A DNA stretch of 64,000 nucleotides from an uncultured Candidatus Saccharibacteria bacterium (GCA_964362625.1 CAYIFA010000001.1:2994-66993); one strand, 5' to 3'. Counted from the first letter of the stretch, positions 3,961-18,633 are shown. The notes: a model not told the origin generated them from the letters alone. Numbers and translations: made by a program.

Positions 3961-4854
3961 TCAAGAAAATTTACGGAAATTCTGCTTTTTATTTTTAAGC
4001 CATTCCTGATCATGCATGCTGACATCTTCGGGAGTAAGCCCCTGTGTAGCTAAAATTGCTTCGTTGAATTTGCGATCGCGGTGGAATAAGGCGGCGGCTT
4101 CCGCAAGCCCGCAATTTTCGAGATGAGAAATTAAAGCGTCGGTGTCTTTTACGAAACAAAATCCGCCGTATCCGCGGTAACCACCGTGGTGTACATCAAG
4201 ATGCGAGTGTCCAATCCGTGAGTCAGCGCCAACTGCTTTACGAATATTCTCGAAATCGGCTTGATGGTACTTTGCTAAATCATAAACGGCATTAGCAAAG
4301 GTAATTTTTCTTGCCAAAAAGACATTCGCGGCATATTTTACGATTTCAGCTTCGGTCGCGCTCAAATTTAATGCGTTAGACGGCGACGCGAGCGGCGCTT
4401 TCGGCAAAAGCGATAAAACAATCGCGGCTGCCTCGCGACTGCCCAAAGTCCATCCAACCAATTGCCGCTCGGGCTTGATAAAATCCTGCCAAGCGGACTT
4501 TTCGGTGAGAAACTCCGGATTAAAAAATAGTTTGTGCTTTGGGTTAGCTTTTTGTAAACTTTCGGTAGTTCCGGGAGGTACAGTTGATTTTATAACCACA
4601 ATCTTAGAACCGCCTATTCCGGCTACTGCTTCCTCAACTATTGAAGTATCGGCAGAACCGTCTGCCCAACGCGGGCTTGGCACGCAAATGAAAATTACAT
4701 CGGCGCGATTAATATCGTCGGAAAATCGTTTGGCCGGATCTTTATCGTACAAAAACAAATTGCGCCCATGTTCATATGCCTTATCCTCGAACCATTTCTT
4801 AAGCGGCCCACCAACCATTCCGACCCCCACTATGCCGACTTTATATTTCATCAT
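3961..4854 (-). CDS. UDP-glucose/GDP-mannose dehydrogenase family protein, short form lacking the usual C-terminal nucleotide-sugar-binding domain
   Basis: An N-terminal Rossmann motif (KVGIVGVGMVGGPL) and the catalytic-Cys motif GGFCFVKD (compare GGSCFPKD in UGDH) are present. The start is trimmed to MMKYK. The protein is only about 297 aa. Confidence 0.65.
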   Translation of the reverse strand: MMKYKVGIVGVGMVGGPLKKWFEDKAYEHGRNLFLYDKDPAKRFSDDINRADVIFICVPSPRWADGSADTSIVEEAVAGIGGSKIVVIKSTVPPGTTESLQKANPKHKLFFNPEFLTEKSAWQDFIKPERQLVGWTLGSREAAAIVLSLLPKAPLASPSNALNLSATEAEIVKYAANVFLARKITFANAVYDLAKYHQADFENIRKAVGADSRIGHSHLDVHHGGYRGYGGFCFVKDTDALISHLENCGLAEAAALFHRDRKFNEAILATQGLTPEDVSMHDQEWLKNKKQNFRKFS

Positions 4855-4879
4855 ATTGAATATAATATTCCAAAATAAA

Positions 4880-4910
4880 TGCAAAAAAAAGAGGCTGGAT
4901 TAACCAGCCC
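4880..4910 (-). terminator. Rho-independent terminator downstream of NeuB paralog 1
   Basis: A ggctgg / ccagcc stem preceded on the plus strand by an A8 run, which gives a U-run on the minus strand. Confidence 0.6.
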
Positions 4911-4917
4911 CAATACT

Positions 4918-5928
4918 CTATTCAATATCTGTCCATCGGATAATGCTGTCTTCGGTTATGTTATGTTTGGCCCTCTGCCCAATAACTTTATAAAGAAACT
5001 TAGCCGGGATGCCGTCATATAGCGGCCGCTTGGTTGATATGTCTTCGACGCCAATAATTTTTCCGGCAGGGACATCCTTAACAGTCACTACGGCATGACG
5101 CGCCCATTCGATAATAGGTCGTTCCTCGGAGAAAATTATCTTTACATTACCGCGAGCTTTCTCAATTTTTCGTACGCCATCTACAAGCATTTTGAATTCG
5201 TGCCGCTCCAATGAAACTTTGTGATCGCTGGTTCCTACGGTATTTCTATTCAAGGTGTAATGCTTCTCGATCAACGAAACACCATACGGCACTGCCGCAA
5301 TCGCAGAGAATATTTCCGGAGTATGATCAGACAACCCCACCGCCACTCCATAACGTTCTCTCATTTTAGGAATGACCCCCAAGTTAAGCCGCTCATAAGG
5401 CGTCGGATAAATCGATATGCAATGAACCAACATAAACGGGGTGCCATATGACCCGACAAGCTCAACTGTCTCGGTTATCTCCTGATATCCGCTCATGCCG
5501 GTGGAAATAATCATTGGCTTGCCTTTTCTGGCAATGTGCTCGATGAACGGTAAATCGGTCATTTCGCCCGAGCCGATTTTGAACGCATCAACACCGATTT
5601 CTTCCAATTGGTCAGCGGCCTTACGCGAAAACGGCGTACACAAAAAGTAAAGTCCTTTTGTTTCAGCATAGCTCTTAAGGTCGGCCAATTGACCGATTGA
5701 TAACGAACGCTTCCCCTGCATGAAGAATTTAGGATGAGAACGAATCATCTCCTCTCTCGGGATATGCAGTTGGAACTTCACTGCGTCAACGCCGGTACTT
5801 TCGATTTCGTCAATCATCCGCTTGGCAACTTCAAAACTGCCTTCATGAGTATTGGCAACTTCGGCTACAATAAACACCGGCTCGAAATCACCAACGAGTT
5901 TCCTGCCGAGCCTGATTCGCTTTAACAC
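4918..5928 (-). CDS. NeuB-family nonulosonic acid synthase (N-acetylneuraminate/KDN/pseudaminate synthase-like), paralog 1
   Basis: It has a PEP-condensing TIM barrel (FIVAEVANTHEGS, KFQ) and a C-terminal SAF domain. Length is 336 aa. Confidence 0.85.
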   Translation of the reverse strand: MLKRIRLGRKLVGDFEPVFIVAEVANTHEGSFEVAKRMIDEIESTGVDAVKFQLHIPREEMIRSHPKFFMQGKRSLSIGQLADLKSYAETKGLYFLCTPFSRKAADQLEEIGVDAFKIGSGEMTDLPFIEHIARKGKPMIISTGMSGYQEITETVELVGSYGTPFMLVHCISIYPTPYERLNLGVIPKMRERYGVAVGLSDHTPEIFSAIAAVPYGVSLIEKHYTLNRNTVGTSDHKVSLERHEFKMLVDGVRKIEKARGNVKIIFSEERPIIEWARHAVVTVKDVPAGKIIGVEDISTKRPLYDGIPAKFLYKVIGQRAKHNITEDSIIRWTDIE

Positions 5929-5931
5929 TGT

Positions 5932-6810
5932 TTAATCCTCCTTGATGAGTAGTTTGTCCTTGGCATAATACCCGACACCAATCATCCCGGCCTTATTGCC
6001 GTAGCGAGCTTTTCTGACTTTGATCGGTTTACCGCTAAGACCCCTAACTTTTTTTTCAAGTTCTCGTTTGTAAAATGGAAAAAGCAATTCGGTAATGCCG
6101 CCACCCATAACAACCGTACTAATATCGAGCAAATTCACTGCGTTCTGAACGGCTAAAACAAAATAGGGGAATTCGTCGGCTTGCGCCTGCCACAGCCGCT
6201 GGAGCTTCTCTGTTTTAAGTTCGGGGATACTCAGACTTAAATTAAGCGCGATCGCCCGGCCCGAACATAGATCTTCGATGCTGTAGTAATATCTTTCGCG
6301 AGAATCATAAATTTTTCCGATGCCGAATTCCCCGGCAAAACCAAGTTCTCCCTCTACAAGTTGCCCGTCAAGAACTACTCCTCCTCCTATTCCAGTTCCA
6401 ATGGCTAAGAACAAAAAGTTCTTAGGCGCATTCCGGCTTGAAGATAACTCGCAATAGGCCGCCGCGGAAACGTCATTAAGCGCGATTACCTGCCATTGCG
6501 TGAGCGACCCGATTTTTTGGAAATCAAGTCTCTTTATAAATTGAAACGGTCTCCAAGCCACCACCTTATAATCTCTAGTGATGCCCCCAGTGCAGGCAAA
6601 AGCCAGAGCGCTTATGGCATTGTCGTAAGAATGGATCGTCTCCACCAAGAAATTTTCAAATTTCTTTTTATCAGTAAAAGGAGTAGTAGAGGCCGCGTCC
6701 AGATATTTAAACCGATAATCATCCGGACTAAAAAGCCCCGACTTTACCGAGGTCCCGCCAATGTCAAAACAGAGAATTGGTCGGTCATCAACCAGCACGC
6801 CAACCTCCAA
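5932..6810 (-). CDS. ROK/glucokinase-like ASKHA sugar kinase, candidate ManNAc or hexose 6-kinase
   Basis: A phosphate-1 motif (CFDIGGTSVKSG) and a ROK-like motif (LAIGTGIGGGVVLDGQLVEGELGFAGEFG) are present. No obvious CxCGxxGC zinc motif was found. Confidence 0.65.
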   Translation of the reverse strand: MEVGVLVDDRPILCFDIGGTSVKSGLFSPDDYRFKYLDAASTTPFTDKKKFENFLVETIHSYDNAISALAFACTGGITRDYKVVAWRPFQFIKRLDFQKIGSLTQWQVIALNDVSAAAYCELSSSRNAPKNFLFLAIGTGIGGGVVLDGQLVEGELGFAGEFGIGKIYDSRERYYYSIEDLCSGRAIALNLSLSIPELKTEKLQRLWQAQADEFPYFVLAVQNAVNLLDISTVVMGGGITELLFPFYKRELEKKVRGLSGKPIKVRKARYGNKAGMIGVGYYAKDKLLIKED

Positions 6811-6856
6811 TCAAACCGCATCAAGGCTCAATTTCTGCAAATAGTATAACTTATAT

Positions 6857-7570
6857 CTAGATGTTTTTCAACGCGCGCTCGGCTAAAGACCAATCTTCCG
6901 GTTCATCAACATCAACGGCATATTTTGCATCTATTATATATGGCGCCACATGCTCACCGAAAAAATTAGGTTCGGTTTCATCAAATATAAAATGAGTTTT
7001 TAACAAATAAATGGAAGTATTATTCCAATATGCTTTTGGCACAGCTTGACGCGGAACGATTCTATTTCTTACCGGATTGCCGTTGAAAAGCTGGAGCCCG
7101 CCTTTTTCATTGACTACCATCGCGCGGTGCGGACTAAAATGAACCGGCATTTCCGAAATTCCCAGGACCGAATCAGCGCCGCTATTTAAAAATAATTCTA
7201 CTGCCTCCTTGATGTGAAAATCCTGACGCAATGGCGAAGTCGGTTGCAGAATCATTACCGCATCCGGCCCATAGTTTTCATTCTCTGCGAGCCACTTGAG
7301 CGCATGTTGAACCACCGGCATGGTTGGCGTATCGTCTTTGGCCAGTTCGGCCGGCCGCATAAACGGGACTTCACAGCCATTTTGCTTAGCAACTTTCGCA
7401 ATAGCCTCATCGTCAGTAGTTAAAATAATCCGGTCAAGTGAAGCGGATTTTTTCGCGGCCTCAATGGTATAAACAACAAGGGGCTTTCCGGAGAGTAATT
7501 TTATGTTTTTACCCGGGATACCTTTTGATCCACCGCGCGCAGTGATAATGCCCAAAATTTTAGGATTCAT
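6857..7570 (-). CDS. Acylneuraminate cytidylyltransferase (CMP-NulO synthetase) family, paralog 1
   Basis: It has the ITARGGSKGIPGKN N-terminal motif and the PTSPLR motif, both typical of CMP-NeuAc and CMP-KDO synthetases. Confidence 0.85.
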   Translation of the reverse strand: MNPKILGIITARGGSKGIPGKNIKLLSGKPLVVYTIEAAKKSASLDRIILTTDDEAIAKVAKQNGCEVPFMRPAELAKDDTPTMPVVQHALKWLAENENYGPDAVMILQPTSPLRQDFHIKEAVELFLNSGADSVLGISEMPVHFSPHRAMVVNEKGGLQLFNGNPVRNRIVPRQAVPKAYWNNTSIYLLKTHFIFDETEPNFFGEHVAPYIIDAKYAVDVDEPEDWSLAERALKNI

Positions 7571-8729
7571 GAAACACTTTTTGTGTATAAAGTGGAATTT
7601 TACTTAAAATTCTTACAATATTTTCGCTTGTATTTGGTTTAAAATAGCCTTTAAAGCCGGGATATTTGCCATGCCGAAGCTGATATTTGATGGCGTCCGC
7701 AATTTTGGCTGAACCGTAATCTCCATCCACGTCGATCACGCTTGGAGCGCGCAAACGTCCGGCCTGGCGGCTACCGATATTTACCGTCGGCACACCCAAA
7801 AATGACGCTTCTTTTATTCCGGATGAAGAATTGCCAACAACAATCGCAGCCTTTCTCAAAAGCGCCACAAAGTCATCCGGCAATAAATCAATCATAAATC
7901 TTATATTCACTCCGGTGTCTCCGGATTTTTGGTCGTGAATTTCGCGTAACCTACGGGACATATCGGCAGTCCCGGCATCAATATTTGGCCAAAACCATAC
8001 CGCTGACAATTTAGCTCTAACTAATGCGTCGTATATCGCTTCAACTCCCCGCACATGATCGGCTTCGCTGGTTACCGGGTGAAACATCACCAGCGCAAAA
8101 GGTTTTTCGATGTCAACATTACCGCCCACTCCGCGTAAATTAGCGTATTCGGAAGTAATTTTTTTATTGGAATTTTTTATAAATTCTAAATCCGGCGAAC
8201 CGACATTAAAAACCATTTTAGGATTTTCGCCCATTTGAATCACATGTCTACGAGCCGCGTCATTGGTTACAAAATGAATATGCGAAAGTTTGGTTATCGC
8301 ATGCCTGACGCTTTCGTCAATGCTTCCCGTAACATCGCCCCCTTCAATGTGCGCGATAGTTTTATTAAGGTATGCGGCAGACATGGCCAGCGCCAGTTGT
8401 TCAAATCTGTCACCATGAATCAAAACTATATCCGGATTTAACTTTTCAAAAATATTTGAGGTTTCCAGGGCGATCAAAGCGGCAGTTTTTGCCATAGCTG
8501 CATGGTTGCCGCCTTCAATAACATTTAATAAACGCTCTTTAATATTGAAATTGGCGGCCTCAACATCGGCAAGAGCCTTCTCGCCGTAGCGCTCCAGCAT
8601 TATCGAGCCGCCTAAAATAACCTGCGGTTCAATTCTTGGATTTTTATGCAGTCGGGTCAACAACAATTTTATCCGCGCGTAATATGAGCGGCTCAATATC
8701 GGAATGCAAATTTTTCTCTTTTCGGCCAT
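7560..8729 (-). CDS. neuC: UDP-N-acetylglucosamine 2-epimerase, NeuC-like (hydrolysing type)
   Basis: A 389-aa GT-B epimerase fold with an HIEGG motif and wecB/neuC family architecture. It is in an operon with the CMP-NulO synthetase and NeuB genes. Confidence 0.75.
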   Translation of the reverse strand: MAEKRKICIPILSRSYYARIKLLLTRLHKNPRIEPQVILGGSIMLERYGEKALADVEAANFNIKERLLNVIEGGNHAAMAKTAALIALETSNIFEKLNPDIVLIHGDRFEQLALAMSAAYLNKTIAHIEGGDVTGSIDESVRHAITKLSHIHFVTNDAARRHVIQMGENPKMVFNVGSPDLEFIKNSNKKITSEYANLRGVGGNVDIEKPFALVMFHPVTSEADHVRGVEAIYDALVRAKLSAVWFWPNIDAGTADMSRRLREIHDQKSGDTGVNIRFMIDLLPDDFVALLRKAAIVVGNSSSGIKEASFLGVPTVNIGSRQAGRLRAPSVIDVDGDYGSAKIADAIKYQLRHGKYPGFKGYFKPNTSENIVRILSKIPLYTQKVFHES

Positions 8730-8811
8730 AACTTGACAATATGATTATATTTCAGCGAAATCTTCGTTATTTTCGTTATAATTAACTTACAATAAAAAAA
8801 CGTGAACCGCA

Positions 8812-8846
8812 ATAAAGAAAAGGCGGCTTGTCTGCTCAAGCCGCCT
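8812..8846 (-). terminator. Rho-independent terminator
   Basis: A 9-bp stem (aggcggctt / aagccgcct) with an 8-nt loop. It is flanked on the plus strand by aaagaaaa, giving a U-tract on the minus strand. Confidence 0.65.
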
Positions 8847-8853
8847 CTAGTGT

Positions 8854-8893
8854 TAAACCTAGGAGGTTTAACTATTAGACCTCCGAGGTTTAA
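8854..8893. repeat. REP-like imperfect palindromic element, family 1, copy A
   Basis: ttaaacctaggaggtttaa-ctat-tagacctccgaggtttaa. It shares the 5' 8 nt and the 3' 18 nt with the copy at 16387..16427. It lies immediately 3' of a minus-strand gene stop and before a canonical terminator. Confidence 0.7.
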
Positions 8894-8900
8894 TATGTAT

Positions 8901-10085
8901 TTACTTTTTCGCGAACTCTCGCAGGGTGCTGACAATCGCGCGGAGCGCGACGCCTTTTTCTGTTGGTTTTGGATAAAGCTGTTCTTGCTTTACCCTAAGT
9001 TCGCGGCACAAGACATTTCTCTGTTCTAGCAAATCAATAACGCTGTTAGCGATATATTGCGGTTCACCGCCAACATAGGAGGTAACTCCTTCTTCGACCA
9101 ATTCCCACTTGCCGCCAGAAACGCCCTTGAGTCGGACGCTTGTGGTAACATTTAAAAGGCTGATGACCGGCTTACGCTGGCAGACGGCCTCGATTTCAGT
9201 AGTAGAGGCAGGACCTATCAGTAAATCGCAGCCGGGAATCAAATCGGAAATTGAAACCTCTTTTGCTGATATTACTCTCGCCGGAATAGCATTCCATTTC
9301 ATCAATTCTTGATAGGACTTAACTCTGGACATTTCTTCAAAAGCAGTAAAAGTTTTTTCAACTTCTTTTTCATCCAAAGCGCGATTATCAGCATCCCTAT
9401 GCTTCGCGGCGTAATCTTTAATAAAGTTCCGCATACCATCATCCATCTCGACACGATCCCCTGGATGTCGGCTGAAAACCAATTGCCACTTACGTCGCCC
9501 AGTGACCATCCAATCCAAGTTGAAGGCCTCTAAAACACTGCTCCACATCGGCATGGTGATCGCTGATGGCTTATGCCCGACAACCAAAACAAACGTCTCA
9601 TCCAGCCGAATCCCGAGCTTGGCTCGCGACTCTTCGTATGACAGTTTCGGGAAATAAAACTCATCCCACAGCGGATTGCCGGAAGAAATAACTTTTGCTT
9701 TTAGAAAAACTTTCCGCGCCTCTCTGGCTTCCTTTTCACTCAAAACAAAAACAAAACTGGCATCAGCGCGAACACTCTCAAACCAATTACGGTTATGCGC
9801 GCAACCAAAGGTGTCGGCATAAAGTCCGTAAGGAATCCTAGCTTCGCGGGCAGCCATACACGACACAATTTCTTCTCTGGCAGTGTTGGCATTAGCCGAC
9901 ATACCTACCAGTAAAACATCTGCTGACCTTACAGCGGCAACAATCTTATCGTCAAGTACTTCAAGAGCTTTTCCTCTACCCAAAACCGGTATTACGCCGA
10001 ACTTTCCGGTTTCCAACAGCGAATCCCTGACCCTTTCGAACGCCTGCGACGGCGCGATGTCCCTAGCCACCAGCACTGCTCTCAT
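8901..10085 (-). CDS. GT-B fold glycosyltransferase-like protein (TagF/PseG-like), function unknown
   Basis: A Rossmann-like N-terminal half and a C-terminal GT-B motif (GPASTTEIEAVCQRKPVISL) are present, together with VLVVGHKPS and SRHPGD motifs reminiscent of the TagF family. It sits at the head of the neuC operon. Confidence 0.4.
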   Translation of the reverse strand: MRAVLVARDIAPSQAFERVRDSLLETGKFGVIPVLGRGKALEVLDDKIVAAVRSADVLLVGMSANANTAREEIVSCMAAREARIPYGLYADTFGCAHNRNWFESVRADASFVFVLSEKEAREARKVFLKAKVISSGNPLWDEFYFPKLSYEESRAKLGIRLDETFVLVVGHKPSAITMPMWSSVLEAFNLDWMVTGRRKWQLVFSRHPGDRVEMDDGMRNFIKDYAAKHRDADNRALDEKEVEKTFTAFEEMSRVKSYQELMKWNAIPARVISAKEVSISDLIPGCDLLIGPASTTEIEAVCQRKPVISLLNVTTSVRLKGVSGGKWELVEEGVTSYVGGEPQYIANSVIDLLEQRNVLCRELRVKQEQLYPKPTEKGVALRAIVSTLREFAKK

Positions 10086-10131
10086 CAGCTAACTCTCCTT
10101 TTTGATTTTCAACTCCGCTAGTATTATACCC

Positions 10132-10187
10132 AAAACAAAAGCCCCGTCAAGATTTGGCGGGGCGCTTACACTTCGGAAGTGTAAAGT
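10132..10187 (-). terminator. Tandem hairpins 3' of the Gfo/Idh/MocA gene (stop-proximal palindrome plus rho-independent terminator)
   Basis: A 9-bp palindrome (cttacacttcggaagtgtaag) overlaps the stop codon. A gccccg...cggggc hairpin follows, with an aaaacaaaa run on the plus strand (U-run on minus). Confidence 0.55.
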
Positions 10188-11311
10188 TATCCATAGTAAG
10201 CTTTATTAAGGATTCTCATTACTTCTAAACCGGAGCGGTAAGACAAAGGCGACTCGCAAGGATTAGTTGCTTTAAGCAGTGAATCGTAATGCTGGACTTC
10301 GTAATAAAAATCATCTGGACGGGTTTTAGGGAAAATCTCAACAACCTTCCGATTTTCTGTTTCGTACTTAACAACATCACCAGCCGGGTCGCCATTACAA
10401 TGCCATTCGAGCCAACCTTTTGTCCCTTGAACCCGCGCCCACTTGCGCGGCGGTTTGGTAACGACGTCCTGAGTTACATGCCCCACTCTTCCTTTGTTCA
10501 TCTGCATTATAAAATGGGCAATCCGGTCATATTCCACACGCTGCGATCCGGCTAAATCACTTACTACATTCAATTTACGTACCAAGTCGCAAAGTCCATA
10601 GCTTTCACCCGGCCACCACCATGCCCATGAGGCCAATTTCAGAAACAAATGCAAAGCGTGAGAATGCTCGTTGCCCGCTCCTCCGCCGCGGCGCCAATAG
10701 CCCAGATAGCTATCCTGCAGCCCAGATAGCCACGGATGCGCTTTAAAAGCCCCTTCCCAGTGCTCACGAAATTCAACGTCAATGGTTAAGATCTCACCAA
10801 ACTCTCCGCCATCACCCTTTCTCTCTTCAATCCGATTTTCATTAAGAAGATCGGCAACACGACGAATGCTGTTCGAAACCGCGTGATTGTAACCAACTGT
10901 TACAATCGTATCCGGATACTTTTTCATTTCGGCTTCAAATTCGGCAACACCTGTGAGGTTCGGAGTGCAGAGTGGTTTTTCTAGGTGCAGGAGTCTTGGG
11001 TTTTTCTTGATTTCTTCAATCGCCAGCTTCATCCGCACATCCGGAGGAGTAGTGATCATGATGATATCGAATCTATCAGGAATCGCATCTCCAGTCCTGT
11101 AGTCCTCAAATTGCGATGCGCCGCCAACCCCATCTGACAAAAATAGCCCTATCGTAAGATCAACTATTTGATAGCGGTCACTATAAATCCGGCGAAAACG
11201 ATCCAAAGCGCGTACACTCGTATCTACCACGGAAACCCGCCAGCCCATCCTGCAACACGCTTGCGCCAAATGGATCCCGGCCGAACCAGCCCCGATGATT
11301 TTTACGTTCAC
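10187..11311 (-). CDS. Gfo/Idh/MocA family NAD(P)-dependent sugar oxidoreductase
   Basis: It has a Rossmann motif (MNVKIIGAGSAGIH) and the family EKP motif (LHLEKPLC). Confidence 0.75.
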   Translation of the reverse strand: MNVKIIGAGSAGIHLAQACCRMGWRVSVVDTSVRALDRFRRIYSDRYQIVDLTIGLFLSDGVGGASQFEDYRTGDAIPDRFDIIMITTPPDVRMKLAIEEIKKNPRLLHLEKPLCTPNLTGVAEFEAEMKKYPDTIVTVGYNHAVSNSIRRVADLLNENRIEERKGDGGEFGEILTIDVEFREHWEGAFKAHPWLSGLQDSYLGYWRRGGGAGNEHSHALHLFLKLASWAWWWPGESYGLCDLVRKLNVVSDLAGSQRVEYDRIAHFIMQMNKGRVGHVTQDVVTKPPRKWARVQGTKGWLEWHCNGDPAGDVVKYETENRKVVEIFPKTRPDDFYYEVQHYDSLLKATNPCESPLSYRSGLEVMRILNKAYYG

Positions 11312-11964
11312 TCGTCCGATTCCTTTCTAGTTATGATTTCGGGAACATCACGAACCGAATCAATCGTAACAAATTTTTCGTTTTTCGTCCAGTTAGTAAA
11401 ACCGCTCAATATTCCGATGAAAAAACAGCCATAAGCTTCGGCGGCTACGCGATCCGGTTCGCCATCTCCAACAAAGACGGTCTGATTGCCACCAACTTGT
11501 TCAAGAGCAAAAATCTTTTCAAGTGCGCTTTCCTTGGTCTCCGGTCGCCCAAAAATTTCGGCAAAAAACTTCCCTATCCCGAGATTGTCAACGCTTTCAC
11601 CCAACGCCTCAATGGGGGTGGAGGAATTTAAATAAAGTTTGTACTTTTTTGACAATTCCTCGAGCGCCTCCCAAACTCCGCCAATCAACCCTTTCCGTAA
11701 AATACCGGTTTGCGTAATTTGGTTATATTTTTCGGCGTGTGCCCGAATAAGCGTTATCCGCTCAGCATCTCGGCGCCCCAATGCCCTAAAGATCTCATCT
11801 AAAATTACATATCTGGTTCGGACCGCGACTTTCGGAAATAGTTCAAGCGCTACCTGCTTTTCATTCTCCGGCAAATCGCCAAAGACGTCGGACCAAGCCT
11901 CGTCTTTTATACGATTGGAATCAACCAGCACGCCGTCAAAATCAAATACTATGACCTTGAACAT
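11308..11964 (-). CDS. HAD-superfamily phosphatase, candidate NulO-9-phosphate phosphatase
   Basis: HAD motif I (VFDFDGVLVDS) and motif IV (GDGEPD) are present. It overlaps the upstream gene by 4 nt and lies between NeuB-family genes. Confidence 0.8.
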   Translation of the reverse strand: MFKVIVFDFDGVLVDSNRIKDEAWSDVFGDLPENEKQVALELFPKVAVRTRYVILDEIFRALGRRDAERITLIRAHAEKYNQITQTGILRKGLIGGVWEALEELSKKYKLYLNSSTPIEALGESVDNLGIGKFFAEIFGRPETKESALEKIFALEQVGGNQTVFVGDGEPDRVAAEAYGCFFIGILSGFTNWTKNEKFVTIDSVRDVPEIITRKESDE

Positions 11965-12023: not shown

Positions 12024-13568
12024 TTAGTCAAACTGATGCCGGCCCCAGTTTAATAAATAGGTTTTCCTGAAATCCCGCGGGAGCTTTGAAATTGCTTTAT
12101 CGGCATAGTAAGAATCATCGGGATGATTGGTAGTAGAAATTTCTTCAAAAATAACCCCGGTGTCACTGCCGAAAGCATGCACTATGCCGCGCGGCACCCA
12201 CAATGAATCACCCGGTTCCAAAACTTTTTGCCGGTCGTCGATATCAACTTTCATAACCCCGCTTAAAACATGAAAAGTTTCATCTTTTTTCATGTGGTAG
12301 TGCGCCGGGTTATATTGACCGGCTAATTGCACAACAATTTTTTTGGCGTATTCGCGATTAAAACAAGTGATTAAAGTACAGCCGGCTTTATGAAAATTCT
12401 CTACTCCATAATGATGCGAGAGTTCCACTTGAAAATCATGGCCCAATGGAACTTTGGCCGTATTAAGCATGCCCTTTATCGAATGGATGGCGTGATAAAT
12501 TATTTCTTTTTTCTCCGGAACATCCGATCGAGTTATGCCCGCGATGGCCTCTTTCGGCAGATAATCCTTATCAGCCAACATCCCATCCCTCCACCGGCCG
12601 CTTACCAACTGGCCGCCTTGCAAAGGCATGGCAAAAAATACATCCGAGCGGTCAATGATTGTTCCGGCCTCAATCCGGCGTTTGGCGTAAACCCCACGCA
12701 TTAGGGACCTGAGGTCGCTTGCTTCTTCTTCAGAAATGCTTCGCTCACCAGCTTCATGCCCGCATGCCTTAACTGCTTCTTTATACGAGGCGACCCAAGC
12801 GTCCACTTGTTCGGGAGACGCTGAATAAGCGTTCAATTTTATGCCGTCAGCCGGGACTCCAACATGCTTTTCAAAAATCCGCGCGCCTTTAGCGTAAGCA
12901 AGACCGACGAGCGACGTATTTGATGGCTCTTCATGCGTTGAAAAGCCAATAGTCAATCCGGGATAACGGCTGCGTAAAATTCCAATCTGATTTAAATGCG
13001 CTTTATCGTTGGTCATCGGATAAATTGAAACACAGTGCATAAGCGCGAAGTGCACCGCGCGTTTTTGGAAAAAGCTAACGATTTTATCAATATCTTTGAC
13101 CGTAAGTCCGCCGGTTGAAATAATTACCGGCCTGCCGGTATCAGCAACCCGCTCCAACAACGGAAAATCTAGGGCTGAACAGCTGCCGATCTTTATTATC
13201 TCAATACCCAGGCGCATGATGCGGTCAACCGACAGTTCGTCAAACGGCGTGCACATCGAAATCAAGCCGAGTTTTTTTGTTTCGGCGACCAATTCGGCGA
13301 ATTGCTCCTCGCTCATCCGCGTAGATAAAAATCTCGGGATATGCTTAATATCTTTGGACTCGCGGAAATCCGGATGAATAAAAGTATCCAGATCTCGAAA
13401 CTGCAGTTTCACTGCCGCGCGAATATTGTGCCTAGAAGCAATATCGGCCATGGCATTAATAATGCGCTGGCCATGCTCTACCGAACCTTGGTGATTATTG
13501 GCCATTTCGAAGACAAATAGATTTTTGAAATCAAATTGTGGCATGGAAATATTGTAAGATAAGGGCAT
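12024..13568 (-). CDS. NeuB-family synthase, paralog 2, with SAF domain and an extra C-terminal cupin domain
   Basis: A NeuB-like TIM barrel (FVFEMANNHQGS) and a SAF region are present. The C-terminal 150 aa carry cupin motifs (NPAHYHMKKDETFHVLSG ... GDSLWVPRGIVHAF). Total length is 514 aa. Confidence 0.8.
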   Translation of the reverse strand: MPLSYNISMPQFDFKNLFVFEMANNHQGSVEHGQRIINAMADIASRHNIRAAVKLQFRDLDTFIHPDFRESKDIKHIPRFLSTRMSEEQFAELVAETKKLGLISMCTPFDELSVDRIMRLGIEIIKIGSCSALDFPLLERVADTGRPVIISTGGLTVKDIDKIVSFFQKRAVHFALMHCVSIYPMTNDKAHLNQIGILRSRYPGLTIGFSTHEEPSNTSLVGLAYAKGARIFEKHVGVPADGIKLNAYSASPEQVDAWVASYKEAVKACGHEAGERSISEEEASDLRSLMRGVYAKRRIEAGTIIDRSDVFFAMPLQGGQLVSGRWRDGMLADKDYLPKEAIAGITRSDVPEKKEIIYHAIHSIKGMLNTAKVPLGHDFQVELSHHYGVENFHKAGCTLITCFNREYAKKIVVQLAGQYNPAHYHMKKDETFHVLSGVMKVDIDDRQKVLEPGDSLWVPRGIVHAFGSDTGVIFEEISTTNHPDDSYYADKAISKLPRDFRKTYLLNWGRHQFD

Positions 13569-14302
13569 TAACTATGCAATCGCTTTTTCATTAGAATTTC
13601 CGCAACTTCAAAATCAAGAGTACTGTCAATGTTTATCGAATCCTCCGGATTCATAAAAAAATAGGCAACTTTTTCGCCGGAAGTAGATTTTAAATCGCGA
13701 ATTGTATTGAGCCGCATAACATCCATTGCTCCGGTATGGACATAAACTTTCGGGAGCATTTGGCGCGGGAGGTTATACGGCTCATCCATTTTGGTGATGG
13801 TTTTCGGTAAAAACGGCTCCATGATTGCCGAGCTCCCGATTGTTTGCCACATTTTATAAGGATGCTTGGGTGATTCGGTTATCGGCCGACAGGAATCGGC
13901 ATCAGGATTATTCAAAAGCTTTTGAATGCCCTGATCAATATGCGCCGCAGTCCTAAGCGGTGAGGTCGGCGGCAGGCGTAAAACAATATCTGGCTCGTAA
14001 TCTTCTTTCTTCTTTAAAAAATCAAGCGCGTGGTTTAAAAATTCTACGTCGGTCGCGAGATCGCCGGAGATTTCCGCAGGGCGCAAAAACGGGACTTCTC
14101 CTCCATATTTTTCGGCAACCTTTGCGATTTCTTCGCTATCGGTTGAAATAATAAGTCGCGTCAAAAGATTTGATTGCTTTGCAATTTCAATAGTCCAAGC
14201 AATCAATGGCTTACCGGCTAAATTTCGTATATTTTTCCCGGGCACGCCCTTGGATCCGCCGCGCGCGGGAATAATTCCTAAAATCTCCATTTTTTTCATC
14301 AA
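13568..14302 (-). CDS. Acylneuraminate cytidylyltransferase (CMP-NulO synthetase) family, paralog 2
   Basis: IPARGGSKGVPGKN and PPTSPLR motifs are present. It overlaps NeuB paralog 2 by 1 nt, which suggests translational coupling. Confidence 0.85.
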   Translation of the reverse strand: MMKKMEILGIIPARGGSKGVPGKNIRNLAGKPLIAWTIEIAKQSNLLTRLIISTDSEEIAKVAEKYGGEVPFLRPAEISGDLATDVEFLNHALDFLKKKEDYEPDIVLRLPPTSPLRTAAHIDQGIQKLLNNPDADSCRPITESPKHPYKMWQTIGSSAIMEPFLPKTITKMDEPYNLPRQMLPKVYVHTGAMDVMRLNTIRDLKSTSGEKVAYFFMNPEDSINIDSTLDFEVAEILMKKRLHS

Positions 14303-14363: not shown

Positions 14364-16310
14364 TTATTTATAGATGTCCGTTATCCTGTCGGCAATAGAC
14401 AGATAATCTAGCTTGTGATACTTGAGAACCTCGTCATTCAATCCGCAAGCCGGAATTTCCTCTAGGCCATAATTGACTACAATCGGCCCGCCAAGTCTAC
14501 CAAAAATTCCCGAAATATATTCGCCCTGACCGCCCTTAATATAATGGTTATCTAATGTAAAAACAATTTCGGCATGATCAAACGTATCGTTGATCCAATC
14601 AGCATCAATGCGATTTAGCCAAGGAATGTTGAATACTGATAAGCTGTAATCAGTAAGTTCCTGAACACGCTTCGCGGCCTTTACTGCTTCAGTAAGCATT
14701 AACGGACCGTAGGCAATGATGTAAGCAAAGGAGGAGCCATTGTCACCTTTATACACGCATACGCCTTGTCCAGGCCTTAGCTGATAGTCGGGAGGGAGCC
14801 CGTAAGGCAAGTCCAAAGGAACATTAACAAATCGGATATAAGTGCTGTCCGGATTATTTTCAACCGCCCAACGAATTGCCATTCGGGCTTCGGCTTCAGA
14901 GGACGGTTCAATTGCCGTAAGCCCGGGCATTGCCGACATACAGGCAATGTCGCGCACTGACTGATGCGAATGTCCGGGACCGCCCGGAATCAAACCGGCC
15001 AGTGTTCCGATATAAATAATCTTGGATTTTTCAGTAGCATTATTGTAAATCTGCTCATTGGCGCGCGGGGTAAGGAAGCAAGCAAACGAATGAACAATCG
15101 GTAGCATGCCTTGTCTGGCAATACCGCCGGCCATGCTAACCATATCCTGTTCGGCAATCCCGCATTCAACAAATCTTTCCGGATGGCTTTTTTTGAATTC
15201 GGCAATCCCACAATCTTTCACCAGATCGGCGTCCAAAACTACAATGTCTTTTCGGTCTTCGGCAATCTTCAAAAGTTCGTCGCCATAAGCCGAAACAAGA
15301 TTCTGGGCTTTAGGAGATGCGGAAACGCGCTTTGGCATATCGCATGTCTCAAATTCCAAAACTATATCGCCTTTGGTCGATGCCCAGATACCTATTTCGA
15401 GTTCTGCAAGCGCGGCGTAATAATCATTATCCGACGGCGCTCCAGCATGATACTTGTAATATTCTTCATCGGCCTTCGGCTCCATAAAAGAGACGCCTTT
15501 ACCTTTGATGGTGTGAGCGATAATTGCTGTTGGGCGTCCGGAAAAAAATTTTGATTCGCGGACTTCTTTCAGAATCGCCGCTAACGACCAGAAGTCGTGC
15601 CCGTCAACTTCAAAGGTATTCCAGCCAAATGCATTGAATTTTTTGGCGATATGGCCAATGTCGCTGACATTTTTAACAAAGGTATCGGATTGCATTTTGT
15701 TGCAATCAACTATGACCGTGATCTCGGTATACCGGTCATTAGCGGTTTTCCCTAGTGATTCCCAAATCTGGCCCTCTTGCAATTCGCCGTCTCCGGTCAA
15801 AACGTAAATCCTTCCTCGCGTCCCTTGCATTCTTCGCGCGTAAGCCATGCCCCGCGCTTTTGAAACGCCCATACCAAGTGATCCGGTATTGGTTGCGATG
15901 AACGGAGTGCCGACATCCGGATGACCGGGCAGGCCGCCGATGCGACGAAGTTTGTGAACAAACTCATACGGAATATGTTCTCTTCCGATTAAAACTGAAT
16001 ATAAACCGGGAACATCGTGGCCTTTTGAAGAAAAGAATACATCAGAATGTGGCGGATCAATTTTCAAGTCATGATCAAATTCTTGATTCGGCGAATTCAT
16101 CTCCCTTTCCCACAACCAAGTTACTATATCCATCGCGCTGAAACTCGTCCCGATATGACCGGAACCGGCTTCCTTGATCATAGAAAGGGTATTTAAGCGA
16201 TATATATCGGCCAGCACTCTCATTCGTGCAAACGCATCGCCCGTAACCCATGAGCGAACCTTCCTGATTTGCTCAAGCGGCACAAAATAGAGTTTTCCTT
16301 TTTCAAACAT
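14364..16310 (-). CDS. tkt: Transketolase (full-length, TPP-dependent)
   Basis: A GSGHIGTSFSAMD TPP motif, a GDGELQEGQIWE motif, a pyrimidine-binding domain and a C-terminal domain are present. Length is 648 aa. Confidence 0.85.
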   Translation of the reverse strand: MFEKGKLYFVPLEQIRKVRSWVTGDAFARMRVLADIYRLNTLSMIKEAGSGHIGTSFSAMDIVTWLWEREMNSPNQEFDHDLKIDPPHSDVFFSSKGHDVPGLYSVLIGREHIPYEFVHKLRRIGGLPGHPDVGTPFIATNTGSLGMGVSKARGMAYARRMQGTRGRIYVLTGDGELQEGQIWESLGKTANDRYTEITVIVDCNKMQSDTFVKNVSDIGHIAKKFNAFGWNTFEVDGHDFWSLAAILKEVRESKFFSGRPTAIIAHTIKGKGVSFMEPKADEEYYKYHAGAPSDNDYYAALAELEIGIWASTKGDIVLEFETCDMPKRVSASPKAQNLVSAYGDELLKIAEDRKDIVVLDADLVKDCGIAEFKKSHPERFVECGIAEQDMVSMAGGIARQGMLPIVHSFACFLTPRANEQIYNNATEKSKIIYIGTLAGLIPGGPGHSHQSVRDIACMSAMPGLTAIEPSSEAEARMAIRWAVENNPDSTYIRFVNVPLDLPYGLPPDYQLRPGQGVCVYKGDNGSSFAYIIAYGPLMLTEAVKAAKRVQELTDYSLSVFNIPWLNRIDADWINDTFDHAEIVFTLDNHYIKGGQGEYISGIFGRLGGPIVVNYGLEEIPACGLNDEVLKYHKLDYLSIADRITDIYK

Positions 16311-16341
16311 CTATGCCTCCTTGAAAGTTTCTTTACCCAAG

Positions 16342-16368
16342 AAAAAAGATAGCACTTATCGTGCTATC
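16342..16368 (-). terminator. Rho-independent terminator downstream of the SDR gene
   Basis: A perfect 8-bp stem (gatagcac-ttatc-gtgctatc) preceded on the plus strand by an A6 run. Confidence 0.7.
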
Positions 16369-16386
16369 TTGTCAATTCTTCCGGCA

Positions 16387-16427
16387 TTAAACCTCCCGGG
16401 TCTAATAGTTAGACCTCCGAGGTTTAA
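16387..16427. repeat. REP-like imperfect palindromic element, family 1, copy B
   Basis: ttaaacctcccgggtcta-atagt-tagacctccgaggtttaa. The arms are complementary at 15 of 18 positions plus a GU pair. It starts 4 nt after the stop of the minus-strand SDR gene. Confidence 0.7.
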
Positions 16428-16430
16428 CTT

Positions 16431-17345
16431 TTAGAGAGCGGTCCAGCCGCCGTCGACAACTAGGGTCGAGCCAGTCATGTAGCGGCTCGCTTCTGAAACC
16501 AAAAACAGGATTGCGCCGTTGTAATCATCCGAGTTAGCCATCCGCTTCAGCGGAGTCCGCTGCACGTATTCGGCGATAAAACGCGGATCTTGATTTTCTT
16601 TTACACCACCTGGCGCCAAAGTGTTTACCCGGATATTCAACCTATGGTAGCCGCAATAACCGGCAAGCCATCTGGTGAAATTCAGCACTCCGGATTTGGC
16701 AACGCTATACCCAACCGGTTTGTTGTAATCAATATCGCCATCAGCTCGGCGAAAATCATAAATTGACTGATCCGGACTAACTAATCCGTAAGTAGAAGAA
16801 ATATTTACGATTTTGGCCCACTTGTCTTTGGCAATTTTCCCTGACTCGCGAGCAGACCGAAAATTCCTGATAAACTCCTGGCTCACCAAAAACATTCCGG
16901 TCAGATGAGAATCCAGAACTGCGTGCCAAGTTTCTTCGGAATAATTTTCAAACAGGCCATTATCCGATGCCGGCGCGTCAGGACGAGAATCCATGCCGGC
17001 ATTATTGATAAGAATTGTAGGAGTACCGCGTTCCGCTTCCTCCATCCATTTAAAAAAACCTTGAATTTCTTTTCTATTGGTAATGTCGCACGTCCAAGCT
17101 TGTCCCGCCATCCAATGACCGAGCCCGCACATTTCGCGAGCCAACTTCGCTACGTCATCGGCAAAATGATCCTTAAGGTCTAAAGCGACTACATTTGCCC
17201 CGGCTTTCATGAGCGTCATAACATACTGACTCCCCAATAAGCCCATCCCGCCAGTTACAATCGCAACTTCGCCGTCCAAGTTAAACAATTTGTCAAAAAA
17301 CGCATGCTGTATATCATTCCGGCTCTCGGGCCATTCATTGCGCAT
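16431..17345 (-). CDS. SDR-family oxidoreductase (classical short-chain dehydrogenase)
   Basis: It has the motif VAIVTGGMGLLG, the motif NNAG, and the catalytic motif YSVAK (YxxxK). Confidence 0.8.
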   Translation of the reverse strand: MRNEWPESRNDIQHAFFDKLFNLDGEVAIVTGGMGLLGSQYVMTLMKAGANVVALDLKDHFADDVAKLAREMCGLGHWMAGQAWTCDITNRKEIQGFFKWMEEAERGTPTILINNAGMDSRPDAPASDNGLFENYSEETWHAVLDSHLTGMFLVSQEFIRNFRSARESGKIAKDKWAKIVNISSTYGLVSPDQSIYDFRRADGDIDYNKPVGYSVAKSGVLNFTRWLAGYCGYHRLNIRVNTLAPGGVKENQDPRFIAEYVQRTPLKRMANSDDYNGAILFLVSEASRYMTGSTLVVDGGWTAL

Positions 17346-17550
17346 GCAAAATCCTCATTTTCGATACTATGTGATTCTAAAGTAATTGTAGAGGGTGCTA
17401 ATAAAAAATCAACCCCGTCACTAGAAAATGGCATATTGATGCGCGTTTCTATTGAGGGGCCCACTGAGGATTCTGGATTAATTAATCGTTACAATGACCC
17501 GTGTTAAGAAGAGCGCATCAAAGAAACGCCATGCCATTTTCAGTGCGGGG

Positions 17551-18633
17551 TCAAGACCAAACAATATCTTCGTGCTTTATAACACCATCTTCGGCAATGT
17601 CGGCCTTGGCGGTTTTCCCTACTATCTCGCCAAGCATTCGTGGCTTTAAGCCATAACCCGGGCTTTTGCAGGTGAGCATTTCGGCGGTTATTTTGGCGCC
17701 GGCCGGAATCCGGGTTTTCGCGACAATGCTTTTGGAGTGTTTGTCGCGCGTCGGTTTTTCAACGTCAAAAAGAAACTTGCCGTATTGGCCCATGGCCTTT
17801 TCAATCCGGCGGGTAGACACCACCATGTGCTTGAATTCCACTGGATCAACGCTAACCGTAGCATGATCCGGACCCGGCAGATTTTTATCGAGGGTAATAT
17901 GGCGTTCAACGGTTTTCGCGCCAAGGGTAATTGCGGCAAGTGTCGGCAAAAATCCTTTTTCGTGACCAGAATATCCAATTGGCAGTGGATTATATCGTTC
18001 TCTTAAAAAGGGGATGGTGGCTAAATTCAAATATTCATCCAAGGTCGGGTAAACCGAAACGCAATGTTTTATGATCAGCTGGTTATTATGCTTTAGAATC
18101 GTCTCGACTCCTTCATCTAGCTCCTCCAAAGAATGCATGCCGGTTGATAAAATCATTGGCTTGCCTTTTTTGGCCACATGTTCCAGGAGCGGTAAATTTG
18201 AAACGTCGAATGAAGCAATTTTATAAACATCCATCCCGACTTCTTCCAAGAAATCTGCGCTTTTTTTATCAAATGGAGTCGCGAAAAATATTGTGCCGAG
18301 CTTTTGCGCGTGTTCTTTGAGTTTCAAAAAATTATCCATATCCAACTCCAGGGCCTTCCGATACTCGCCATAGGTTTTGCCGAAAATCTGGTCCTTAGTT
18401 TGTTCTTTATTTTGAAGTTCTTTAGCAAAGACTTCGTCAATAAAACGCTTTTGAAATTTCACCGCATCAGCACCGGCTTTTACCGCCTCTTCAATGGTGC
18501 GTTTCGCCAAGAAATAGTCGCCATTGTGGTTATTCCCGATTTCAGCAATAAAAAATACCGGCTCGCCTTCGCCGACAAAGCGACCTCCAATCTTCACTTT
18601 CCGCGGCAAATCCTTAAATTTGTCTCGCAACAT
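17551..18633 (-). CDS. NeuB-family synthase, paralog 3
   Basis: FFIAEIGNNHNGD and KFQK motifs plus a C-terminal SAF domain are present. Length is 360 aa. Confidence 0.85.
   Translation of the reverse strand: MLRDKFKDLPRKVKIGGRFVGEGEPVFFIAEIGNNHNGDYFLAKRTIEEAVKAGADAVKFQKRFIDEVFAKELQNKEQTKDQIFGKTYGEYRKALELDMDNFLKLKEHAQKLGTIFFATPFDKKSADFLEEVGMDVYKIASFDVSNLPLLEHVAKKGKPMILSTGMHSLEELDEGVETILKHNNQLIIKHCVSVYPTLDEYLNLATIPFLRERYNPLPIGYSGHEKGFLPTLAAITLGAKTVERHITLDKNLPGPDHATVSVDPVEFKHMVVSTRRIEKAMGQYGKFLFDVEKPTRDKHSKSIVAKTRIPAGAKITAEMLTCKSPGYGLKPRMLGEIVGKTAKADIAEDGVIKHEDIVWS

Follow-up and report, generated by a model that had tools for sequence, protein, structure and literature searches.

Phosphorylated routes to nonulosonic acids are known from animals, Bacteroides and a haptophyte alga, and their phosphatase step has been held to be non-specific or untraceable (PMC6200933). 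The animal pathway to N-acetylneuraminic acid (Neu5Ac) runs through GNE, NANS, NANP and CMAS. In Bacteroides thetaiotaomicron, the pathway to Kdn (3-deoxy-D-glycero-D-galacto-nonulosonic acid) consists of the Kdn-9-phosphate synthase BT1714, the Kdn-9-phosphate phosphatase BT1713 and a CMP-Kdn synthetase; there, as in Prymnesium parvum, an aldose 6-phosphate is joined to phosphoenolpyruvate (PEP), a HAD phosphatase acts on the resulting nonulosonate 9-phosphate, and CMP is added, all without a kinase. Two further systems invite comparison: the classical neuC-neuA-neuB route of Neisseria meningitidis and Escherichia coli K1, and the Kdo (3-deoxy-D-manno-octulosonic acid) pathway of KdsD, KdsA, KdsC and KdsB.

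Here we compare these systems with a locus in a stretch of 64,000 nucleotides (nt), hereafter the window, from an uncultured Candidatus Saccharibacteria bacterium (GCA_964362625.1 CAYIFA010000001.1:2994-66993). An earlier note, made from the sequence alone, had drawn attention to positions 5932-11964, where a ROK-family sugar kinase and a HAD phosphatase are interleaved with NeuC, CMP-synthetase and NeuB genes, and had read them as a phosphorylated nonulosonic acid route of the animal or Bacteroides kind. Open reading frames (ORFs) and profile searches confirmed that all of the named genes are present and intact; they lie on the minus strand, as does the whole region. We favor, with somewhat better than even confidence, a reading in which this interval forms the central part of a nonulosonic/ulosonic-acid island about 14 kb long, made up of three transcription units and encoding a phosphorylated route fed by an isomerase. 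Taken separately, a phosphorylated route centered on the HAD protein and two of the synthases, NeuB2 and NeuB3, and needing no kinase, is predicted with rather more assurance, because the HAD protein is dedicated to NeuB-type synthases and NeuB3 resembles enzymes proven to form 9-phosphates. An isomerase, rather than a kinase, would be the likely source of its substrate.

The HAD phosphatase and its partner synthases

Two synthase genes, NeuB1 (4918-5928) and the NeuB2-cupin fusion (12024-13568), abut the interval from outside. The interval itself holds two genes beyond those of the earlier note, for a GFO/IDH/MocA-like oxidoreductase and an unknown 394-amino-acid (aa) protein; just upstream are a third NeuB, a second CMP-synthetase, a short-chain dehydrogenase/reductase (SDR) and a transketolase. 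Because terminator-like hairpins follow three of the genes, and genes overlap or nearly touch within the units so defined, we divide the island into three. Unit C contains, in order, NeuB3, the SDR and the transketolase; unit B contains CMP-synthetase 2, NeuB2-cupin, the HAD gene, the GFO-like gene and the unknown gene; and unit A contains NeuC, CMP-synthetase 1, the ROK gene and NeuB1. The features of units C and B are as follows.

17551-18633, minus: NeuB3, NANS-like nonulosonate synthase with NeuB and SAF domains (blastp 252 bits to human NANS)
16431-17345, minus: SDR oxidoreductase (Pfam adh_short_C2)
14364-16310, minus: transketolase-like thiamine diphosphate enzyme (Pfam Transketolase_N, Transket_pyr, Transketolase_C)
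14356-14333, minus: terminator-like hairpin 3' of the transketolase gene, the end of unit C
13568-14302, minus: CMP-ulosonate synthetase 2 (CTP_transf_3; Pfam and NCBIfam matches)
12024-13568, minus: NeuB2-cupin fusion, with a 3G8R-type NeuB synthase (PDB 3G8R, E=2e-90)
12027-12548, minus: C-terminal cupin domain of the fusion, D-lyxose/mannose-isomerase-like (about residues 341-514)
11308-11964, minus: C1-capped HAD-IA phosphatase, proposed to act on ulosonate omega-phosphates (Pfam HAD_2 and Hydrolase)
10187-11311, minus: GFO/IDH/MocA-like oxidoreductase (weak Pfam match in the window; its orthologues are clear GFO_IDH_MocA matches)
8901-10085, minus: unknown 394-aa protein (NCBIfam about 25 bits only)
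8848-8819, minus: terminator-like hairpin 3' of the unknown gene (12-bp stem, 7 G-C pairs, T-rich tail)

Within unit B, the stop codon of CMP-synthetase 2 overlaps the NeuB2 start by 1 nt, and that of the HAD gene overlaps the GFO-like start by 4 nt. The gene arrangement is not due to chance, because both of its blocks recur in relatives: NeuB3, SDR, transketolase, CMP-synthetase 2, NeuB2-cupin and HAD in locus L008, and NeuC, CMP-synthetase 1, ROK and NeuB1 in loci L002 and L007, with a ROK protein that is 57% identical.

What the HAD family travels with was determined by a scan with the HAD alignment over one genome per GTDB species, which gave 80 loci; their HAD proteins were scored on the family profile, and the flanks were searched with the window's proteins. 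At 46 loci the HAD reached 100 bits or more. Of these, 30 had a NeuB gene within 3 kb, 31 a cupin, 35 a CTP_transf_3 cytidylyltransferase and 28 a GFO-like oxidoreductase. At the 34 loci with a generic HAD, below 100 bits, each of these four partners scored zero. A ROK gene was found within 10 kb at 0 of the 46 family loci and 0 of all 80 scanned, the generic 34 included. These associations support the conclusion that the phosphatase is dedicated to NeuB-type synthases here. The usual cassette order is GFO-like, NeuB-cupin, HAD, cytidylyltransferase, and the cassette occurs in Saccharibacteria, Desulfobacterota, Kiritimatiellia, Alphaproteobacteria, Chloroflexota, Planctomycetota and Elusimicrobia, as well as in the cultured Salinisphaera hydrothermalis, where glycosyltransferases flank it. 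Metagenome contexts agree with the GTDB loci. In a member of the Niyogibacteria (L108), a HAD of the family (234 bits) lies directly 3' of a NeuB3 orthologue, with no cupin present.

A 723-aa cluster representative, P0316, carries NeuB, cupin and HAD domains in one polypeptide. We rejected its HAD domain as a member of the family: with only 52 bits on the family profile, it is of a different HAD-IA subtype and represents an independent recruitment. This fusion implies that the pathway needs a phosphatase and has recruited one at least twice. Our searches of the literature found no description of the cassette, and nothing relevant on nonulosonic acids in the candidate phyla radiation (CPR), on NeuB-cupin fusions, or on lyxose isomerase with neuraminate synthase. 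Two individual loci can be recorded alongside. Near the S. hydrothermalis cassette (L031, 3049-4518) are a match to a GT29 (sialyltransferase) domain and GT4 and GT2 glycosyltransferases, and in a Saccharibacteria metagenome-assembled genome (L014, 7162-9981) a 939-aa ORF spans cytidylyltransferase, NeuB2 and cupin, either a triple fusion or an assembly artefact.

The HAD protein, of 218 aa, has all four motifs of its superfamily: I (DxD), II (S/T), III (K) and IV (DD). Across 33 aligned homologues, residues D8, D10, S114, K144, D167 and D171 never change; K20 and T116 are constant among family members of 130 bits or more but vary in generic HADs. In the AlphaFold model (mean predicted local distance difference test score 95.9), residues 16-91 form a four-helix cap; it is inserted after strand 1, and the cap is therefore of the C1 type. 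The earlier note had pointed to BT1713 as the standard for cap type and aligned residues. That comparison did not hold up: the cap is C1 rather than C0, and BT1713, whose sequence we translated from the supplement of PMC6200933, gave no blastp match at E<=10. The match to KdsC is confined to core residues 106-182 (2e-4), so that in cap, length and similarity the protein falls outside the C0 (BT1713/KdsC) class. Its Foldseek template modelling (TM) scores to the NANP structures 4KNW, 2GFH and 2W4M are 0.76-0.77, a level that holds for many other HAD-IA enzymes. It reaches only 30.9 bits on the NANP/HDHD4 model TIGR02253 (cutoff 169.75), and the family profile ranks NANP (E=6e-4) below about 55 other HADs in the PDB. 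Among solved structures its closest relative is 2AH5, a COG0546 phosphatase that is itself uncharacterised (7e-21). By sequence, then, the HAD is neither a BT1713/KdsC homologue nor a NANP orthologue, but belongs to an unnamed C1-capped HAD-IA family. These PDB profile matches also include beta-phosphoglucomutases (about 1e-9), which also rank high in fold similarity (TM up to 0.79), but a phosphosugar mutase of that type is very improbable, given that the best sequence relatives are COG0546-type phosphatases, that no sugar-1-phosphate nucleotidyltransferase accompanies the cassette, and that the fixed partners are a synthase and a CMP-transferase, the latter needing free sugar.

The synthase partner of the HAD in unit B is the NeuB2-cupin fusion. 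All 28 aligned cupin domains match Pfam Lyx_isomer (PF07385), the window's domain with 36.5 bits against a cutoff of 20.8, whereas the model for mannose-6-phosphate isomerase (PMI) matches only 7 of the 28. The best long PDB matches are the D-lyxose isomerases 2Y0O and 7NZO (1.9e-13), followed by mannose-6-phosphate isomerase (2.5e-9), and H83, H85, K88, E90 and H124, the metal and catalytic residues of an HxH..K.E...H pattern, are invariant. Among the best 150 representatives of 50%-identity clusters, 121 have the cupin domain and 99 of those are full-length fusions of at least 450 aa. The synthase domain has invariant basic loop residues of its own (QFR...H...RF..T) at the beta2-alpha2 loop position. 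An aldose-ketose isomerase yielding manno/lyxo sugars would give the configuration used by characterised NeuB-type enzymes.

NeuB3, in unit C, is the most NANS-like of the three synthases. We compared each with NeuB of N. meningitidis (NmNeuB), with human NANS, whose sequence an exact look-up confirmed, and with the P. parvum Kdn-9-phosphate synthase, taken from PMC6200933. In that order, the blastp scores were 166, 252 and 107 bits for NeuB3, 204, 169 and 87 for NeuB1, and 93, 99 and 63 for NeuB2. NeuB3 and human NANS share 39% identity over 340 alignment columns with 2 gaps, and the NeuB3 loop GKTYGEYRK corresponds to GKTYGEHKR in human NANS and GDTYGAHRE in P. parvum. NeuB3 also has the motif IGYSGHE, aspartate for E134 (ASFD) and serine for R314 (KSPG); substitutions at E134 and R314 are reported for eukaryotic NanS (PMC8208679). 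By closeness, loop, E134D and loss of Arg 314, NeuB3 is thus NANS-type on every count and NeuB1 on none. All three synthases, and human NANS itself (302.5 bits), score under the cutoff of TIGR03569 (399.65), with 288.9 bits for NeuB1, 314.8 for NeuB3 and 133.4 for NeuB2.

Across many CPR groups, NeuB3 orthologues keep 60-90% identity and sit with the SDR and the transketolase, sometimes also with aldehyde dehydrogenase, a cytidylyltransferase and TagF-like transferases. The SDR resembles KduD, gluconate-5-dehydrogenase and PtmA in NCBIfam, all below cutoffs, and is syntenic with NeuB3 in L008, L107 and L108; the transketolase-like enzyme scores 366 bits on the NCBIfam transketolase model (cutoff 488). 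The syntenic genes of L107 and L108 encode proteins 52% (transketolase) and 44% (SDR) identical to those of the window. The module of NeuB3, SDR and transketolase occupies 14364-18633 in the window, 10001-16677 in L107, 10001-16246 in L108 and 3354-7544 in L008. As a speculation on its chemistry, the SDR might oxidise a Kdn-type side chain and the transketolase cleave it, with aldehyde dehydrogenase giving a shorter ulosaric acid. In the window, uvrA (18724-21567) lies within the glycan genes between NeuB3 and a TagF-like (Glyphos_transf) gene; in L008 these two are adjacent, without an intervening uvrA.

Of the remaining unit B genes, CMP-synthetase 2 aligns over its full length with the validated P. 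parvum CMP-Kdn synthetase (30% identity, 86 bits; CMP-synthetase 1 scores 62 bits). The 394-aa protein is weakly similar to surface-carbohydrate or BFO_1060-type glycosyltransferases and has conserved counterparts in L008 (287 bits) and in L019 (92 bits).

We propose the following route for unit B. The fused cupin would turn a ketose phosphate into a manno/lyxo aldose phosphate, most probably fructose-6-phosphate into mannose-6-phosphate, which NeuB2 would condense with PEP to a 3-deoxy-ulosonate omega-phosphate resembling Kdn-9-phosphate. The C1-capped HAD would then take off the terminal phosphate and CMP-synthetase 2 would form the CMP-sugar, with the GFO-like oxidoreductase tailoring an intermediate. 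NeuB3 is expected to use a hexose 6-phosphate, and the same HAD would probably clear its 9-phosphate.

Unit A, its kinase and the surrounding island

The kinase lies in unit A, which comprises the following features.

7560-8729, minus: NeuC, hydrolysing UDP-GlcNAc 2-epimerase (TIGR03568 334.3 bits, cutoff 235.9, full-length alignment)
6857-7570, minus: CMP-nonulosonate synthetase 1 (CTP_transf_3; Pfam 88.6 bits; PseF model 179 bits, below its cutoff of 205.7)
5932-6810, minus: ROK-family sugar kinase, candidate N-acetylmannosamine (ManNAc) 6-kinase (Pfam ROK, PF00480, 94.4 bits, cutoff 22.9)
4918-5928, minus: NeuB1, classical bacterial-type nonulosonate synthase (by blastp closer to NmNeuB than to human NANS)
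4911-4891, minus: terminator-like hairpin 3' of NeuB1, then eight T

The NeuC and CMP-synthetase 1 genes share 11 nt. In public gene calls NeuC is shorter by 43 codons at its 5' end (346 aa against the 389-aa ORF); because the TIGR03568 model already aligns from residue 5 of the longer frame, ATG 8729 is the likelier start. The true ROK start is probably GTG 6798, which is preceded by a GGAGG ribosome-binding site. NeuB1 starts with GTG 3 nt past the ROK stop, with AAGGAGG within the 3' end of the ROK gene, and is translationally coupled to it. Because the 12-bp-stem hairpin separates them, however, kinase and HAD are in different transcription units; that they are two steps of one operon-encoded route is not supported. 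The earlier note's phosphorylated route is therefore likely in its phosphatase half, in that the HAD pairs with NeuB and NeuB3 is NANS-like, but is not supported in making the kinase a dedicated partner, which sits in another unit and was found within 10 kb at none of the 46 family loci.

The ROK protein is a member of its Pfam family and is predicted to be a functional kinase. The DIGGT, ND (N112-D113) and GTGIGGG motifs, with the sugar-binding E161 and E179, are kept in four orthologues. The cysteine cluster of the CxCGxxGC zinc motif is absent; Fusobacterium NanK has likewise lost its zinc site (PMC5458393). The best NCBIfam match is the ManNAc kinase model PRK05082 (90.4 bits, cutoff 283), followed by the NanK model NF047821 (76.8 bits, cutoff 450); both align over the full length. 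In the PDB, bacterial NanKs rank first, led by the zinc-less Fusobacterium enzyme 5NCK (7e-16), and the human GNE kinase (hMNK) chain was not among the 24 matches at E<=0.001. Four of six ManNAc-contact positions are conserved, those four being generic to ROK kinases. A search of 5.8 billion proteins found only three close homologues (55-57% identity); next in line come ROKs annotated as glucokinases, at 28-30%. Scanning metagenomes with the ROK alignment added no close relative, the best matches being 24-34% identical. Wherever context is visible, in three lineages, the homologues sit between CMP-synthetase 1 and NeuB1. As far as these searches reach, the clade appears confined to the present lineage and tied there to unit A.

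Unit A thus resembles a neuC/neuA/neuB-type operon into which a lineage-specific kinase has been inserted. NeuC would give ManNAc, and the kinase would most likely convert it to ManNAc-6-phosphate, a plausible assignment; NeuC and kinase together would mirror the logic of animal GNE. The ManNAc-6-phosphate would pass to NeuB3 or NeuB1, and the HAD would dephosphorylate the product. This link from kinase to HAD is tentative, and we put it at somewhat less than even. A complete but split animal-type pathway (NeuC, a ROK ManNAc 6-kinase, the NANS-like NeuB3 and the C1-capped HAD as 9-phosphatase), running beside an isomerase-synthase-fusion/HAD/CMP-transferase cassette for a Kdn-like or other CMP-ulosonic acid, seems unlikely. 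It is also rather improbable that the protein is no ManNAc kinase but a broad hexokinase (acting on glucose, mannose or fructose) or an enzyme of amino-sugar salvage, which would supply units B and C with hexose 6-phosphate in a CPR cell of reduced metabolism, or that it has an unrelated role. The glucokinase-annotated neighbors, the scores below every NanK cutoff, the two unconserved sugar-contact positions and the need of units B and C for hexose phosphates all speak for it; against it are the fixed place of the gene between CMP-synthetase 1 and NeuB1 in three lineages, the ManNAc kinases among its best full-length profile and structure matches, and the upstream NeuC, which makes free ManNAc.

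NeuB1, the synthase beside the kinase, keeps E134 (GSGE) and R314 (KRP), lacks the NANS loop motif, and has NmNeuB as its best structural relative: it is of the classical Neisseria type. We had also considered a phosphate preference from the beta2-alpha2 loop, where its KR.L aligns with human KRHL, and rejected it; the loop is uninformative because NmNeuB also has Arg at that place. A legionaminic or pseudaminic acid reading of unit A was set aside as well, because the ORFs scanned, which span roughly 1-56.7 kb of the window, included no DegT-type aminotransferase.

The scanned remainder of the window, to about 57 kb, is one large glycan-modification island. Between 36377 and 56668 is an unusual group of candidates for sugar tailoring: two B12-binding radical SAM enzymes, an E1 alpha/beta pair, an E1/Transketolase_C fusion, a GHMP kinase and a fusion of cytidylyltransferase-like and APS-kinase-like domains. 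On the other side of unit A, a UDP-glucose-dehydrogenase-like gene without the C-terminal domain lies at 3961-4884, with counterparts of 285-293 aa downstream of NeuB1 in L002 and L003, and a NusB-NUDIX hydrolase fusion at 1743-2633 is kept in the same two relatives. Proteins matching the ROK and HAD of the window occur in Hainich groundwater assemblies of the 0.1-µm fraction, and GCA_038055175.1 ("Patescibacteria group bacterium") carries the same two. The host is an ultra-small Patescibacteria (CPR) bacterium of Hainich groundwater.

Weighing the order of steps

The main rival to the route proposed for unit B has the HAD acting early. Fructose-6-phosphate would be cleared to fructose, or mannose-6-phosphate to mannose, after which cupin and NeuB2 would make Kdn directly and no phosphorylated ulosonate would arise. 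To our knowledge, the characterised D-lyxose/mannose isomerases of the Lyx_isomer family act on free sugars, so the HAD could act before the isomerase or the synthase; the cupin fits this family better than PMI, and the sequence of reactions does not follow from gene content alone. Yet the fusion of isomerase to synthase argues for direct hand-over of the isomerase product, and in L108 a HAD of the same family follows a NANS-like synthase with no isomerase nearby. Moreover, NANS-type enzymes are proven users of phosphosugars, and the P. parvum Kdn-9-phosphate synthase is strict for mannose-6-phosphate and rejects free mannose (PMC6200933). We therefore regard early action of the HAD as improbable, at roughly one chance in a handful.

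A linear animal-like route, in which kinase and HAD are dedicated partners, is about as doubtful. It would lead from NeuC (ManNAc) through the ROK kinase (ManNAc-6-phosphate), NeuB1 (Neu5Ac-9-phosphate) and the HAD (Neu5Ac) to CMP-synthetase 1 and CMP-Neu5Ac. The five genes fit within 7 kb of a single strand, NeuB1 is coupled in translation to ROK, the block is kept in relatives, and the HAD shares the C1-cap fold class of animal NANP. But the HAD lies behind a strong hairpin in another unit, its family was never found with ROK at the loci scanned, and it is no NANP orthologue (31 against 170 bits on TIGR02253); and NeuB1, nearer NmNeuB than NANS, has the classical residues and not the NANS loop.

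For the three-unit island with an isomerase-fed phosphorylated route, the identities of the genes, the operon limits, the associations of the families and the signatures in sequence are observed, whereas the substrates, the place of the HAD step and the specificity of the kinase are inferred. Several observations weigh against this reading. About a third of the HAD-family loci have no NeuB gene within 3 kb, and the part played by the GFO-like enzyme in the cassette is unexplained. In the three CPR contexts read, neither NeuC nor ROK was found beside NeuB3 orthologues. The kinase lacks the His of the ExGH motif, which reads E161-F-G-I (I, K or Q in orthologues); its NanK scores are far under the cutoffs (90 against 283 and 77 against 450) and only about 30 bits above those of glucokinase models; and NeuB1, the gene coupled to the kinase, bears classical, non-phosphate signatures. 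The use of free sugars by known Lyx_isomer isomerases belongs here too, as it weighs toward early HAD action.

Comparison with described pathways

If the proposed reading is right, the HAD family and the fusion together define an uncharacterised, apparently common pathway for an acidic surface sugar. The dedicated HAD family travels with NeuB-type synthases across at least ten phyla, and at least 99 clusters at 50% identity have the isomerase-synthase fusion in full length. Because one carrier, S. hydrothermalis, is cultured, the cassette pathway is directly testable. The NANS-like synthases, widespread and highly conserved in CPR, bear on the surface decoration of episymbionts and on the origin of the animal enzyme.

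With the classical route of N. meningitidis and E. coli K1, unit A shares NeuC, CMP-synthetase and a NeuB with E134 and R314, but here a ROK gene is inserted and coupled to NeuB1, which falls short of TIGR03569 (289 against 400 bits). Cassette B parallels the Kdo pathway in having an isomerase, a synthase of the PEP-aldolase type, a HAD phosphatase and a CTP_transf_3 cytidylyltransferase, whereas three of the four steps are non-homologous or distant: a cupin stands in for the SIS isomerase, NeuB for KdsA, and a C1 for a C0 HAD.

The match to the animal pathway drawn in the earlier note is partial. Candidates for all four activities are in the island: NeuC and ROK match the domain content of GNE, NeuB3 is close to human NANS, and a CMP-synthetase and a phosphatase are present. 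However, epimerase and kinase are encoded separately, the kinase lies closer to bacterial NanK than to the GNE kinase domain, the HAD is not orthologous to NANP, and the NANS-like gene is in another operon than the kinase and occurs in many CPR genomes without NeuC or kinase.

The match to the Bacteroides Kdn pathway likewise holds for the logic of the steps, which the cassette would share with the kinase-free routes of B. thetaiotaomicron and P. parvum, but not for all of the enzymes, nor for the kinase, for which those routes have no need. NeuB3 has the loop motif of the P. parvum Kdn-9-phosphate synthase, and CMP-synthetase 2 aligns with its CMP-Kdn synthetase from end to end. BT1713, by contrast, is a capless C0 KdsC-type protein of 164 aa, unlike the 218-aa C1-capped HAD-IA enzyme of the island; the cassette synthase is of the 3G8R-type NeuB subfamily and is fused to an isomerase domain; and the GFO-like oxidoreductase is an extra constant member. 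Relative to the Bacteroides and animal routes, what is new here is another phosphatase family, a fused isomerase-synthase, an extra oxidoreductase and, in this lineage, a stand-alone kinase beside NeuC.

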